In this document: one piece after another, positions 48,001-54,000 of the stretch
Numbering within the stretch: the first letter of the stretch is position 1
Layout of the letters: the number at the start of each line of letters is the position of its first letter
Source: Escherichia coli
GTDB taxonomy: Bacteria; Pseudomonadota; Gammaproteobacteria; Enterobacterales; Enterobacteriaceae
Assembly (NCBI RefSeq): GCF_003991155.1
Contig: NZ_CP031297.1
DNA length: 64,000 nucleotides
Direction: 5' to 3' (one strand)
Position numbers: made by a program

Positions 48001-51000
48001 ACAGCCATTGCCTGGTTGCTTCATGGGCAAAAGCTTGATGCGTGGGGCTTTGTAGGTATGGGGCTCATAATTGCTGCCTTTTTGCTCGCCCGATCCCCAT
48101 CGTGGAAGTCGCTGCGGAGGCCGACGCCATGGTGACGGTGTTCGGCATTCTGAATCTCACCGAGGACTCCTTCTTCGATGAGAGCCGGCGGCTAGACCCC
48201 GCCGGCGCTGTCACCGCGGCGATCGAAATGCTGCGAGTCGGATCAGACGTCGTGGATGTCGGACCGGCCGCCAGCCATCCGGACGCGAGGCCTGTATCGC
48301 CGGCCGATGAGATCAGACGTATTGCGCCGCTCTTAGACGCCCTGTCCGATCAGATGCACCGTGTTTCAATCGACAGCTTCCAACCGGAAACCCAGCGCTA
48401 TGCGCTCAAGCGCGGCGTGGGCTACCTGAACGATATCCAAGGATTTCCTGACCCTGCGCTCTATCCCGATATTGCTGAGGCGGACTGCAGGCTGGTGGTT
48501 ATGCACTCAGCGCAGCGGGATGGCATCGCCACCCGCACCGGTCACCTTCGACCCGAAGACGCGCTCGACGAGATTGTGCGGTTCTTCGAGGCGCGGGTTT
48601 CCGCCTTGCGACGGAGCGGGGTCGCTGCCGACCGGCTCATCCTCGATCCGGGGATGGGATTTTTCTTGAGCCCCGCACCGGAAACATCGCTGCACGTGCT
48701 GTCGAACCTTCAAAAGCTGAAGTCGGCGTTGGGGCTTCCGCTATTGGTCTCGGTGTCGCGGAAATCCTTCTTGGGCGCCACCGTTGGCCTTCCTGTAAAG
48801 GATCTGGGTCCAGCGAGCCTTGCGGCGGAACTTCACGCGATCGGCAATGGCGCTGACTACGTCCGCACCCACGCGCCTGGAGATCTGCGAAGCGCAATCA
48901 CCTTCTCGGAAACCCTCGCGAAATTTCGCAGTCGCGACGCCAGAGACCGAGGGTTAGATCATGCCTAGCATTCACCTTCCGGCCGCCCGCTAAATATCTC
49001 CTTTTGGGTTGTTAATAAAACATCCAATAAGTTGACTGTGCGTGAAAAAGAAAGTTTTGTGTGATGGCGTTGAAGATCGCACCGTTAAGCTCTTATGTGG
49101 GATGGTGCAGAGCTCGACGACTACCGATAAAACGCAACCGCCGCAAACAGACAAGAAAAAGCCCCAACTGATAACAGTTGGGGCTTCAGTATTGTGATTG
49201 GTGGAGCAATAGCACCCTGAACCCAAAACCTTCTCGCTCAACCGGTAGTGGCTGATAACAACTCGTGAGGGCTATTGCGGGTTAAGCATTTAGCGATGTC
49301 TAGGGCCAGACTGGACGTCTGAACGCAAGCCGCTGATACTGTACATAACCACAGTATCAGCGGAGGATACCCATGTCGCTGGCAAGGAACGCCACGGCGA
49401 GTCAATCGCCCACTCAAACAAACGGTTACGAACGCCACCAACCCGACCAGACGCTGCTCTACCAGCTGGTTGAGCAGCACTACCCAGCCTTCAAAGCCTC
49501 ACTCGAAGCCCAAGGTCAACACCTGCCTCGCTACATCCAACAAGAATTCAACGACCTCCTCCAATGTGGCCGTCTGGAGTATGGTTTCATGCGGGTTCGC
49601 TGCGAGGATTGTCATCACGAGCGTCTGGTCGCCTTCAGCTGTAAACGACGCGGCTTTTGCCCTAGCTGCGGTGCCCGCCGGATGGCCGAGAGTGCGGCGC
49701 TGCTGATAGACGAAGTCTTCCCCAAGGAGCCCATTCGCCAGTGGGTGCTCAGCTTTCCTTTCCAGCTACGCTTTTTGCTGGCTCGCCATCCCCAGCTGAT
49801 GGGCCAGGTCTTGAGTATCGTCTATCGTACACTCTCAACTCATCTGATCAAAAAAGCCGGTTACACCAAAGCCTCTGCACAAACTGGCTCAGTGACTCTT
49901 ATCCAACGCTTTGGCTCCGCGCTAAATCTCAATGTCCACTACCACATGCTGTTTCTCGATGGTGTCTATGCCGAAGATGACTATGGCAAGCAACGCTTCC
50001 ATCGTGTCAAGGCACCCACTTACGATGAGCTGAATACGCTCGCTCACACCCTCAGCCATCGCATCGCTCGCTGCATGGAAAAGCGTGGGATTTTGGAGCG
50101 TGATGCCGAGAATACGTGGTTGACACTGGAAGAGGGCGAAGACGATACGCTGACTCAATTACATGGTGCTTCGGTTACGTATCGCATTGCCGTCGGCCCC
50201 CAGCAAGGGCGCAAAGTCTTCACCCTGCAAACCTTGCCAGGGCGTGAGGATAAAGCCGACTCAAGCAGTCGAGTAGCCAACCATGCTGGTTTCTCGCTAC
50301 ACGCCGGTGTGATGGCCGAAGCGCATCAGCGGGATAAGCTTGAGCGCTTGTGTCGCTACATTAGTCGGCCAGCGGTTTCAGAAAAACGTCTGGCATTAAC
50401 CGCCAATGGGCAGGTGCGTTACGAGCTCAAAACTCCGTACCGCAATGGCACCACCCATGTGATCTTCGAGCCGCTGGACTTCATCGCCAAACTCGCTGCG
50501 TTGGTACCTAAGCCGCGAGTCAACCTCACACGCTTCCACGGCGTCTTTGCACCGAACAGCAAACACCGAGTTCAAGTAACACCCGCCAAGCGGGGCAAGA
50601 AGCCCGACAAATCGGAAGGTCTCGATACTAACTGGCGTGACAAGAGTCCTGCAGAGCGCCACCGCGCCATGACCTGGATGCAACGCCTCAAGCGAGTCTT
50701 CAATATTGATATTGAAGTCTGCGAACACTGCGGCGGTCACGTCAAAGTGATTGCCAGCATCGAAGATCCGAAGGTCATTGAGCAGATTCTCAAGCATCTG
50801 AAACAGAAAACAGCCAAGGCGAATGCCGCCAAGCAGCGTGAGCTGCCACCAGAACGAGCGCCGCCACTGACTCCCAGCCTGTTCGATCCATCACAGAGTC
50901 GTCTCTTTGACTGACGACCCCAAATCCAACACTGCTCAACACTGCCAACTTTTAAACGGGGCGGTGGGGCAGTTTGTATCTCTCGAGCTATCAGGCTAGA

Positions 51001-54000
51001 GATTTTACCGCCAAATCGAACCTTATTAGAGCGGTTTAGGCTGGACCGGCAGTTAAAATTGGGGCTTGAGCGGTAAACGAGTGAGGGAATTTCAGGTAAG
51101 ATACTTCGGATGAGGAGCAAAAAGGTGGTTTATACTTCCTATACCCTGAGCCAGATGAAGAACAAGACGTAGACGACCCTATTTTGTTCGCTCATGAGCA
51201 TTCAGACTCAATCACACTCACCAAAGTCGAAAAGCCAGTAGCAGAAAGTGTATATGTCGCTACGCGTAACTCTTACAGCAACAACTTTGATTTAGTTCTT
51301 GAATGTATCTTGAATCCTGAAAAATATTACAGCCTATATCAAGGCTCATATGATGGCACTCATGTTCAAGTGATCCTGAATGACTTGGCACTACTACCAT
51401 CATGTAAGACACATAAATCAGAAATTGGCGACTATGTAACATGCAATGTACTGGAGCTGTTCAAAGGCTCAATAGATGCGTATGGCGCAGAAAGTGAATT
51501 TATTGATTCATTCGTGCAACTCGACATTACACCGTACTTAGATAGCACACTGAAAATGGACTACACCGAATTGCAGTTTAGCTACCAGAGCAACGATCTC
51601 ATTGCATTTTTTGGGAATGATCCATGTTCTTAACATGGATCTCTATAGAATAGGAGAAAATACAATGTCTGATCATATCTATAATTACATCATCGGCAGA
51701 ATCGACAAAAGCCGTAAAATTATGGTTCTGGTGAACTACGAATCAAGATCCAATCTGGTGACTCAAGCACAGTTAATGAAAGTCCAATTCCCGAACCTCA
51801 ATACCTTGAGAATGTTCCTGAATGACTTTGAGCCAACGGAAAAACATGTTATCCATTACTCGAAATACAGTAAAGAAATGCCATCAGGTGCAGATGGATA
51901 TTTCCTATTTTCAGAACATGACCAACAATGGAATATTTTTGATCCAAAAGTTATAAATCGGTTTGTTCACATACACCAAGAAGCACCAGAGTTCGATAAC
52001 TACCAAGATTATATCTGTTCTTGTGAAGTCAAAAACTCACCTACACTTAAAGCAAAACATAAAAAACAAGCATTTGTGCAGAAGATGATCTTCACTTCAT
52101 TGGGTTTTGAGCGTTATTGCCATCATTGCAATGGCTATGAACCACTGGATCGCTTTTATTATCATTCTGATACCAAAACCTATGAAGCAGTTTGCAAGCC
52201 TTGTTATGTTCCTCATTACAAGCCTTACAAAATGAAAAAACGTATGACCAGTACGGTTGAAGAATATATTTAATCATTAACTAGAACTCAAAAAGATGGG
52301 CGAATTCAAACATGAGGTGCGACAGTTTCAAAAGCCATATGATAATCAACAAGCTGAGCAAATTTCTCTAATGGTGTAAGCCAATCTAACGCTTTTCTAG
52401 GACGAGTATTCAGTGACATGGCAACTTGATTTAAATAATGCTGATCTGCCTGATTTAAATCAATCCCTTTAGGTAAATATTGCCTAATTAAACCATTCAT
52501 ATTTTCGCATGTGCCTTTTTGCCAGGGTGAATGTGGGTCACAGAAATATACATCTATGCCTAAATCTTCTTCGAGTATTTTATGTTCTGACATCTCACGT
52601 CCACGGTCATAGGTCAACGTTTTACGCAGTTCTGCAGGTAAATATTTCAGAGCTTCAGTTAAAGCCTTGCGCACTGATTCTGCCTTTGCATCAGGTAATG
52701 TTGCCAAGATACAGAGCCGTGTATTTCGTTCAATAAGTGTTGCTATCGAACTTTTATTGTCTTTACCGTAAGCGTAACGCCAACCACACATTCCAATCCT
52801 AACTGATCAACTTTACCCTGTCTGCCATTATCAACTGCCAGGGTAATCATCATGCACCGCACCAAAGAACAATGGTTCGCTTTATTCGCCGAGCAAGCCC
52901 AAAGTGGCCTCACCCAAACTGAATTTGCAAAACGTCAGGGCATCATTCCTACATATTTTAGTTATCGCAAGAGACAATTGTTGGCGTTTCAGGATGATGA
53001 CGGTGGCTTTATTGAGCTGACGCCACAGGGCTTGCAGCTGAATAAATCCATTTTACTACGTAAGCGTGATGTGGAATTGCAGTTTCCAGCCGGCACTGAT
53101 GTGCTGTGGTTAGCGGCCTTGCTCAGAGCGCTCTGACCATGAAAATGTTTCTTGATGTGCCCCAGGTCTATTTGCATAAACAGCCGGTCGACTTTCGTAA
53201 ATCTATTAATGGTTTATCGTTGCTAGTTGAGCAAGAGATGCAGCTCTCGCCTTTTAGTGGCGCACTGTTTGTATTTTGCAATCAGCAGCGTACCCGGTTA
53301 AAAGTACTGTACTGGGATAGCACCGGGTTTTGCCTATGGTACAAACGGCTTGAAAAAGACAAGTTCCGCTGGCCAAGGCAGATGCCTGGCAAAATCCTGT
53401 CTATTAGCGAACAACAGTGGCATTGGCTGTTGCAAGGTGTCGATATTCAAAAAATCACCGCCCATCAGCCACTGCATTACCAGAGTGTGGGCTGATATGA
53501 CGATCGGCTATAAATCCTTGTGATCGCATCCAAAACAATCTAAATCTTACCAAGCACTTAGCCCAATTGGCCGTTACAATAGCGGCCATGAAAAAGACAC
53601 CTCAATCCTTACCTGATGATGTTGAACTGCTCAAGAAAATGCTGCTTGAGCAGACGCAAAAGCTTGAGCGGAAACTGGCACAAAAAGATAAACGCATCGC
53701 CAAATTAGAGCGGGTTAACCAGCAACTGTCGGACAAGCTGCAGCAATTGCTGGAGCGTTACAACCTGAAGAAGTACCAGAAATTTAGCCCCAGCAGCGAG
53801 ACCTACGAAGGTGATGGCGAAGTCTTAAATGAGGCCGAACAGCTGATTGAAGACGAGTCAGTAGCGACAGAGCCAGATAATCAGACGACCGAGAGCGCTG
53901 AGAAACCCGCCGCTAAGCCACGCCGACCAAGGATTGCCCCTGAGCTGCCGCGCGTTGATGTTATCCATGACATTGACGATAAAACCTGTGCCTGCTGCGG

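Follow-up and report, generated by a model that had tools for sequence, protein, structure and literature searches.

The Escherichia coli contig NZ_CP031297.1 contains, within the 64,000-nucleotide stretch analysed here (the window), a copy of ISCR1 and an inverted blaNDM-1 transposon, Tn125, which are separated by about 1.15 kb of AT-rich DNA. Where did this intervening DNA come from, and how did the NDM module come to stand beside ISCR1? The region proved to belong to an ISCR1 complex class 1 integron of the pGD31-NDM type, where it forms the beginning of the variable region; its first 1152 bp (51147-52298, plus strand) are Acinetobacter passenger DNA. On the evidence of sequence identity, base composition and a native upstream continuation, this segment is DNA from the backbone of a pXBB1-9-family Acinetobacter megaplasmid. 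Its border with ISAba125, the insertion sequence that bounds Tn125, is also found in plasmids of that family, at a site which is used by TnaphA6 (ISAba125-aphA6-ISAba125) or by ISAba125.

Source of the 1.15-kb segment

The GC content of 51147-52298 is 37.5%, compared with 53% in ISCR1 and 64% in the Tn125 interior. The original prediction, made from the window alone, had described the segment as AT-rich with about 35% GC and as resembling Acinetobacter DNA; the AT-richness stands with the measured value given above, and the Acinetobacter origin was borne out. A BLAST search with 51147-52297 against 72,556 plasmids (PLSDB) returned 64 matching records, 59 of them from Acinetobacter and the other five from E. 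coli (2), Enterobacter, Salmonella and Vibrio. Identity was at least 99% over the full length of the segment in 46 of the 64, mostly from Acinetobacter, and at least 27 of the matches listed were 100% identical. The Acinetobacter plasmids among the matches listed are 125-400 kb in size and of the pXBB1-9 type, with 100% identity in most. In pXBB1-9 the segment sits within a run of small hypothetical genes, and the native upstream sequence (...CGCTTGGCGTTAATGGACATTGAGCC...) was present in all seven Acinetobacter loci that were examined. Among 5,426 complete E. coli genomes searched, the flank was found only in pEC732_IMP14 (E. coli, Thailand, IncC, NZ_CP015139).

Two reading frames are present in the segment. 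The first (51148-51633, plus strand) is the 3' part of the hypothetical protein WP_024160764, where all 161 residues are identical to residues 117-277 of the full 277-aa open reading frame (ORF) of pXBB1-9. Upstream, this frame continues without a stop across 17 codons of ISCR1, and it lacks a native start, in agreement with the earlier proposal that the frame ending at 51633 is a gene cut at the ISCR1 junction. The 277-aa ORF had no match in Pfam, NCBIfam or PHROGs. The second is the intact 202-aa ORF that had been predicted at 51665-52273 (plus strand), which is annotated as WP_024160765.1 in both Acinetobacter and IncC records. Its Cys-rich C-terminal region is probably a zinc-ribbon; residues 126-195 match phrog_3273 (6e-11), a PHROG of unknown function, and show a weak match to a Lar-like restriction alleviation family (7.7e-4). 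A homologue search with this ORF returned only four proteins, and its single-sequence AlphaFold model had a predicted local distance difference test score (pLDDT) of 36 and was unusable. We infer that both ORFs are hitch-hikers in the IncC context, with no known role in resistance.

The left end of the segment is set by ISCR1. The first 3'-conserved segment (3'-CS1; 47788-48992, plus strand) of the class 1 integron, with qacEdelta1 at 47788-48135 and the end of sul1 at 48968, was identified from its ORFs and from the annotation of identical relatives. Aligned to an ISCR1-free integron, the 3'-CS is the same through 48992, after which ISCR1 sequence follows, and the oriIS motif TATACTTCCTATACCC is located at 51131-51146 (plus strand). 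ISCR1 (CR1) therefore spans 48993-51146 on the plus strand, a total of 2154 bp, which is the canonical length of CR1, and the element is annotated as ISCR1 in relatives of the window. The oriIS end had been placed correctly at 51146. The transposase (49373-50914, plus strand) belongs by its domains to the IS91 family (Y2, HUH-type; Pfam Y2_Tnp, 3e-45, and Zn_Tnp_IS91, 2e-21). The joining of 3'-CS1 (qacEdelta1-sul1) to the terIS-less left end of ISCR1 and the start of unrelated variable DNA at 51147, directly after the oriIS end, are both features of an ISCR1 complex class 1 integron. The partial second 3'-CS that closes the variable region was seen in the near-identical relatives pJ53_SAL-19-0623_NDM (hereafter pJ53_SAL), pC1394 and pEC732_IMP14; the window stops at 64000.

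The ISAba125 site and its junctions

On its right the segment abuts ISAba125, an IS30-family element (52299-55817, minus strand) which is split by ISAba24 into 52299-52767 and 55200-55817. The reconstructed element has the 1087 bp of intact copies and is 99.3-99.8% identical to them. Its ends, GGCGAATTCAAACATGAGGTGCGACA and GGCAGAGTAAAACTTGAAGTGCGACA, were set by comparing five flanking contexts, and they carry imperfect terminal inverted repeats of about 26 bp. It is the ISCR27-side copy of Tn125 and, because the whole Tn125 module is inverted in the window, it is the right-hand copy by the usual Tn125 convention. The start of this element had been predicted at 52298 but lies at 52299. The preceding ATG (52296-52298) is part of the flank and forms the left copy of the 3-bp target duplication of an ISAba125-bounded element, within the stem of the terminator hairpin of the 202-aa ORF.

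The junction between flank and ISAba125 (...CTCAAAAAGATG/GGCGAATTC..., with a slash marking the breakpoint here and below) was observed to be identical in the window and in nine loci from four Acinetobacter plasmids and four IncC plasmids. The occupants of this site in Acinetobacter are TnaphA6 in pXBB1-9, pAcsw19-2 and pAP2044-1, a single ISAba125 in the 2021CK-01332 plasmid, and a compound in pABF9692 with the order ISAba125-aphA6-ISAba125-Tn125 interior-ISAba125. The far end reads ...ACTCTGCC/ATGGCAACTATT in five of five Acinetobacter plasmids, with ATG at both outer junctions, and this same reading in all five means that one ATG duplication bounds whatever lies between. The window has the junction of the TnaphA6 site, and the far end with the repeated ATG was found only in Acinetobacter loci. 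In the A. baumannii CRAb2 plasmid (NZ_CP133707) the site is empty and reads AAAAAGATGGCAACTATTAAATATTGCCATCTTTTTTTT, a terminator-like hairpin after the 202-aa ORF. This plasmid carries Tn125 alone, 180 bp upstream of the ATG site and inside the 202-aa ORF, with the duplication TTG (locus excerpt L003, 14280-14340 and 24400-24640). This is an independent insertion, and ISAba125-bounded elements have hit the locus at least twice.

No Acinetobacter plasmid of PLSDB was found with the arrangement of the window, and the occupants of the site were TnaphA6, ISAba125 or the compound. Therefore, the flank represents a TnaphA6/ISAba125 site and not a Tn125 transposition site. Since the junction between flank and ISAba125 is native to Acinetobacter plasmids, the flank and the ISAba125-bounded module were taken up together and joined to the oriIS end. 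The original prediction had proposed that Tn125 and its left flank were joined to ISCR1, and had suggested a BLAST search for the uninterrupted locus and the Tn125 target duplication. The joint capture of flank and ISAba125-bounded module is retained and the locus with the 277-aa ORF was found in Acinetobacter plasmids, but the site is not a Tn125 insertion site, and it is TnaphA6, the compound or ISAba125 by itself that the ATG duplication bounds. In addition, pAcsw19-2 and pAP2044-1 carry a truncated NDM-1-ble-trpF remnant about 5 kb beyond TnaphA6, with backbone genes in between, which places the NDM and aphA6 modules near each other in the putative donor family.

Tn125 in the window has no pair of flanking 3-bp repeats, as ATG is present on the flank side only, and the NDM-side ISAba125 of relatives is followed by aphA6 in place of a second ATG. 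A matching right-hand flank, which the original prediction had suggested looking for beyond the window, was absent from the IncC relatives; the Acinetobacter right flank was found neither in the window nor in any of the IncC loci. The IncC module ends instead at bp 95 of a third ISAba125, which is fused to qacEdelta1. This right junction reads ...AATCTAACG(CT)CTGGTTCTG, also given as ...AATCTAACG(CT)CTGGTTCTGAAATCC, and was found in 16 PLSDB plasmids. It is uninterrupted in pEC732_IMP14, while the other 15 of the 16 carry a 113-bp IS5-like miniature inverted-repeat transposable element (MITE) in the ISAba125 stub. The MITE, which lies outside the window, has inverted repeats GGAAGGTG...CACCTTCC and a 4-bp duplication, CTAA (locus excerpts L002, 24687-24803; L011, 11094-11206; L007, 37102-37214).

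The left junctions of these plasmids vary. The junction of the window type, TATACCC/TGAGCC (oriIS/TGAGCCAGATG), was found in four of the 16, and that of pEC732_IMP14 lies 15 bp further out (TATACCC/GGCGTTAATGGACAT TGAGCC). A third junction, in groEL (TATACCC/GGAAATCACC), was found in nine plasmids of the pVb2175 type, all nine of which have the shared right junction. The ISCR1 end is intact to the last base (...TATACCC) at all three left junctions, with varying adjoining DNA. One right junction with three left junctions fits repeated rolling-circle excision by ISCR1 followed by rescue through the 3'-CS, a model which predicts a fixed left boundary of the unit made of a 3'-CS fragment and ISCR1 together with a variable oriIS junction. 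In pEcNDM1 the qacEdelta1 breakpoint CTCTGGTTCTG is reused and is joined at about bp 405 of ISAba125 (locus excerpt L016, 12000-12420), which suggests that such a unit, with its fixed left boundary, was joined to ISAba125 twice.

We considered pEcNDM1 as a fourth member of the nested series and rejected it, since the break in its ISAba125 lies near bp 405 and not at bp 95, and its oriIS is fused in ble; it represents a related but separate event. In pVb2134 the right junction is shared and the left side is cut by a Tn3-family element, hence this plasmid is uninformative. An IS91-type target tetranucleotide (CTTG/GTTC) at the junction was also considered; the native sequence at the pEC732_IMP14 junction reads CTT/GGCG, which is not a clean match, and we make no claim from it.

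Twelve ISAba125 copies were aligned and found to differ at five diagnostic sites (647, 833, 836, 855 and 926). The flank-side copy of the window and the ISCR27-side copy of pJ53_SAL read TGGCG at these sites, as nearly does pABF9692, and GAATA is read in the single copy of pEC732_IMP14 and in the copy on the aphA6 side of pJ53_SAL. Across sites 95-299, in the outer halves, the copies of the window, pEC732_IMP14 and pJ53_SAL do not differ. This mosaic of single-nucleotide polymorphisms (SNPs) is the signature of homologous recombination in ISAba125 by which the Tn125 interior plus one ISAba125 was added or removed, although the SNPs do not decide the direction or the host.

Probable capture by ISCR1 and alternative histories

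We consider it probable that ISCR1 captured the Acinetobacter plasmid flank together with the ISAba125-bounded NDM module by a rolling circle, which was rescued via the 3'-CS into a class 1 integron on an IncC plasmid, and that nested variants followed. Homologous recombination would have brought the Tn125 interior with one ISAba125 into a resident TnaphA6, at its flank-side ISAba125, giving the order flank-IS-Tn125 interior-IS-aphA6-IS. A unit of truncated 3'-CS and ISCR1 would then have become attached to the ISAba125 that lies upstream of aphA6, at bp 95. From oriIS, rolling-circle replication would have proceeded back through the 3'-CS, aphA6 and Tn125 and stopped inside the 277-aa ORF. 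The circle so formed would have recombined with the 3'-CS of an IncC-borne class 1 integron and thereby been rescued. Further rounds may have given the nested variants with the same right junction and other oriIS junctions; that of pEC732_IMP14 lies 15 bp further out, and that of pVb2175 falls inside groEL. A published model of the structure involves a circle described as 'orf-orf-Tn125-like-aphA6-delta3'CS-ISCR1' (PMC6834847), and elsewhere a ligated NDM-1-ISCR1 circle was shown to integrate next to a resident ISCR1 (PMC3940617). More speculatively, and with considerable doubt, the plasmids with the 95-bp junction and their three exact oriIS junctions might have recorded repeated rolling-circle events by ISCR1 in nature, all starting from a single donor arrangement, with the two stops 15 bp apart marking a preferred terIS-like site. 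If true, this would offer a concrete sequence context for testing how the terIS-less ISCR1 terminates.

Several points weigh against capture of the complete module by a rolling circle. ISCR1 rolling-circle transposition is a model established in the literature and drawn from structures, and not a process demonstrated by transposition assays. PLSDB yielded no Acinetobacter plasmid in which the flank is followed by ISAba125 and the Tn125 interior in that order; a synthetic query that combined these three parts, with the ISAba125 intact, matched only two CRAb2-type plasmids (NZ_CP133707 and NZ_CP133713), and in NZ_CP133707, the one inspected, Tn125 is at the other site. The order in pABF9692 is the opposite one, with aphA6 next to the flank. 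A synthetic query for the predicted junction between the ISCR1 oriIS and bp 96 of ISAba125 had no full-length match in any record. Exact-pattern scans did not find the left junction, with a gap of 0-30 bp allowed, in species-representative genomes or Joint Genome Institute (JGI) metagenomes, nor the right junction in species-representative genomes. Furthermore, the 15-bp difference between junctions could be a simple deletion, and the SNP mosaic would fit equally well a loss of the Tn125 interior from a pGD31-like ancestor or a gain of the interior after capture, inside Enterobacterales. ISAba24 is rare (12 plasmid records) and, outside the window-type plasmids, is found mostly in A. baumannii, which hints weakly at the presence of the NDM-bearing form in Acinetobacter.

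A gain after capture forms part of another history, in which ISCR1 would first have taken only flank-ISAba125-aphA6, as in pEC732_IMP14, and the Tn125 interior would have been added later, when an incoming Tn125 recombined homologously with the captured DNA in an IncC or other Enterobacterales/Vibrio host. In this history, later oriIS-adjacent deletions or re-excisions in that host would account for the 15-bp and groEL junctions, and re-excision could be driven by the second ISCR1 downstream of the second 3'-CS in relatives (PMC6834847). With the longest flank, and with neither ISAba24 nor the 113-bp MITE, pEC732_IMP14 looks ancestral, and the mosaic fits an insertion into its single ISAba125. 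The ISAba24 in the flank-side ISAba125, however, is elsewhere found mainly in A. baumannii and hints at a stay of the Tn125-bearing form in Acinetobacter, where compounds of TnaphA6 and Tn125 also exist at the same site. Neither point is decisive, and we regard this later addition as possible, if on the doubtful side.

The history favoured by the original prediction, in which ISCR1 captured Tn125 and its flank after Tn125 itself had transposed into an AT-rich Acinetobacter replicon at this site, appears unlikely. It agrees with the flank being Acinetobacter DNA that abuts the ISAba125 end precisely, and Tn125 is able to insert in the 202-aa ORF, as it did in CRAb2 (180 bp upstream, duplication TTG), but in all plasmids examined the ATG site is occupied by the compound, by TnaphA6 or by ISAba125 on its own, and in no PLSDB record by Tn125 alone. 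The same capture is present without NDM in pEC732_IMP14, the mosaic in ISAba125 points to recombination, and relatives have no second ATG beside the NDM-side ISAba125. It is very improbable that the junctions arose by ordinary illegitimate recombination or deletion beside ISCR1, with no activity of its transposase. Although neither microhomology nor a terIS-like motif could be recognised at the junctions and ISCR1 transposition is here deduced from structures, three left junctions preserve the ISCR1 end to its last base while the adjoining DNA varies. The reuse of the qacEdelta1 breakpoint CTCTGGTTCTG in pEcNDM1 with another ISAba125 breakpoint is likewise what would be expected of a fixed transposition unit.

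Other features of the window and known relatives

The integron upstream of ISCR1 (41055-47631) has two intI1 copies, both on the minus strand (41055-42068 and 45939-46952), with blaOXA-4-aadA2-strA-strB between them followed by aadB, and is therefore an integron with two 5'-conserved segments. It is 100% identical to MN604268 and MN604267 and matches the description of pGD31-NDM. Inside ISAba125, ISAba24 (IS66 family, 2424 bp; 52768-55191, plus strand) was identified from its inverted repeats, target duplication and annotation. It is flanked by the 8-bp duplication TCTTTACC at 52760-52767 and 55192-55199, has terminal inverted repeats GTAAGCGTAACGCCAACCACAC / GTGTGGTTGGTGTTACGCTTAC and carries the three-ORF set typical of IS66 (52852-53136, 53106-53495 and 53567-55150). 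Copies with 100% identity occur only in four window-type plasmids, and copies with 98.8% identity are found in A. baumannii and a few Enterobacterales. In pJ53_SAL, ISAba24 is present at the same position in both ISAba125 copies, which suggests conversion between the copies.

The Tn125 interior (55818-63736, minus strand) is inverted and was assigned from its ORFs and from the annotation of the near-identical pC1394 and pEC0102-4P-1. It has the blaNDM-1-ble-trpF-dsbD-cutA-groES-groEL-ISCR27 content of Tn125, with ISCR27 at 56551-58044, groEL at 58269-59909, groES at 59965-60255, cutA at 60443-60772 (plus strand), trpF at 61819-62457, ble at 62462-62827 and blaNDM-1 at 62831-63643, the last adjoined by an aphA6-type promoter region. 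The NDM-proximal ISAba125 (63737-64000, minus strand) runs off the window after its first 264 bp, which are 100% identical to bp 1-264 of the other copy. The ISAba125 pair of Tn125 thus consists of one complete copy split by ISAba24 and one seen over 264 bp in the same orientation; the latter is longer than the 91-95 bp kept in pC1394 and agrees in this with the pGD31-NDM/pJ53_SAL type. Beside the ISAba125 end, the region upstream of blaNDM-1 and its first codons are identical to those of aphA6 (63620-63736 compared with locus L005, 20040-20176). This common start is the known chimera of aphA6 and NDM. Recombination in the repeat of about 220 bp could explain the loss of aphA6 in pC1394.

The structure of pGD31-NDM and pC1394 has already been published (PMC6834847), where the origin of the two ORFs was not traced. 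The locus is ordinary of its kind, and the current understanding of ISCR1 and Tn125 is unchanged. The original prediction had also considered that the 1.15-kb segment might match a known ISCR1-associated variable region unrelated to any Tn125 insertion site. The segment is indeed part of the pGD31-NDM and pC1394 regions, but these regions and the window are of one lineage. The present analysis adds the source locus of the two ORFs, the location of the ATG target in a terminator hairpin, the variants of the left junction (15-bp and groEL) that have one right junction in common, and the recombination mosaic in ISAba125. These outline one route of blaNDM-1 out of Acinetobacter, from an ISAba125-bounded compound on a megaplasmid, through pickup by ISCR1 with 1.15 kb of backbone, to class 1 integrons on broad-host-range IncC plasmids that E. 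coli, Salmonella, Enterobacter and Vibrio now carry. The backbone fragment can serve as a lineage marker and, together with the right junction, links the pEC732_IMP14, pGD31-NDM/pC1394 and pVb2175 types as one family.

The closest relatives of the window are pJ53_SAL and its Salmonella parent plasmid (MN604268 and MN604267), which are 100% identical to it across 30000-49000. pJ53_SAL differs in that its ISCR1 region is about 1.3 kb longer and ISAba24 interrupts both of its ISAba125 copies. The likeness to pGD31-NDM was drawn from its published description and we infer the identity from it, as this plasmid is absent from the searched collections. In both, ISCR1 is followed by two unknown ORFs, an ISAba24-split ISAba125 and the Tn125 interior; the integron with blaOXA-4-aadA2-strAB and a second intI1-aadB and the junction between ISCR1 and flank are also the same. 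Compared with the pGD31-NDM/pJ53_SAL type, the window stops short of aphA6. pC1394 (V. alginolyticus, MH457126) and pEC0102-4P-1 (E. cloacae, AP024844) are identical in the junction between ISCR1 and flank, the flank, the ISAba24-split ISAba125 and the Tn125 interior, but have dfrA16-aadA2 cassettes, an NDM-side ISAba125 cut to 91-95 bp and no aphA6.

Like the window, pEC732_IMP14 has the Acinetobacter flank beside ISCR1 and the same junction between flank and ISAba125, and its right junction (95-bp ISAba125/qacEdelta1) is that of the NDM relatives. Its order is ISCR1, flank, ISAba125 (split by ISEc70 and not by ISAba24), aphA6, the 95-bp ISAba125 stub and qacEdelta1. It differs in lacking Tn125 and NDM, with aphA6 as its sole cargo, in lacking the 113-bp MITE, and in a flank that is 15 bp longer at oriIS. 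The pXBB1-9-family megaplasmids (pXBB1-9, pAcsw19-2, pAP2044-1, pABF9692 and 2021CK-01332) are the source of the segment and have the same ISAba125 junction and ATG, but their backbone is complete on both sides, with no ISCR1 at the locus, and in pABF9692 it is aphA6 and not the Tn125 interior that adjoins the flank. pEcNDM1/pRpNDM1-1 (PMC3940617) and the pVb2175-type IncC plasmids carry blaNDM-1 between copies of 3'-CS/ISCR1, as do the relatives of the window. pVb2175 has exactly the shared right junction, with its oriIS abutting a truncated groEL and no Acinetobacter flank. pEcNDM1 has the same qacEdelta1 breakpoint, with its oriIS abutting a truncated ble, again without the Acinetobacter flank, and keeps about 405 bp of ISAba125 compared with 95.

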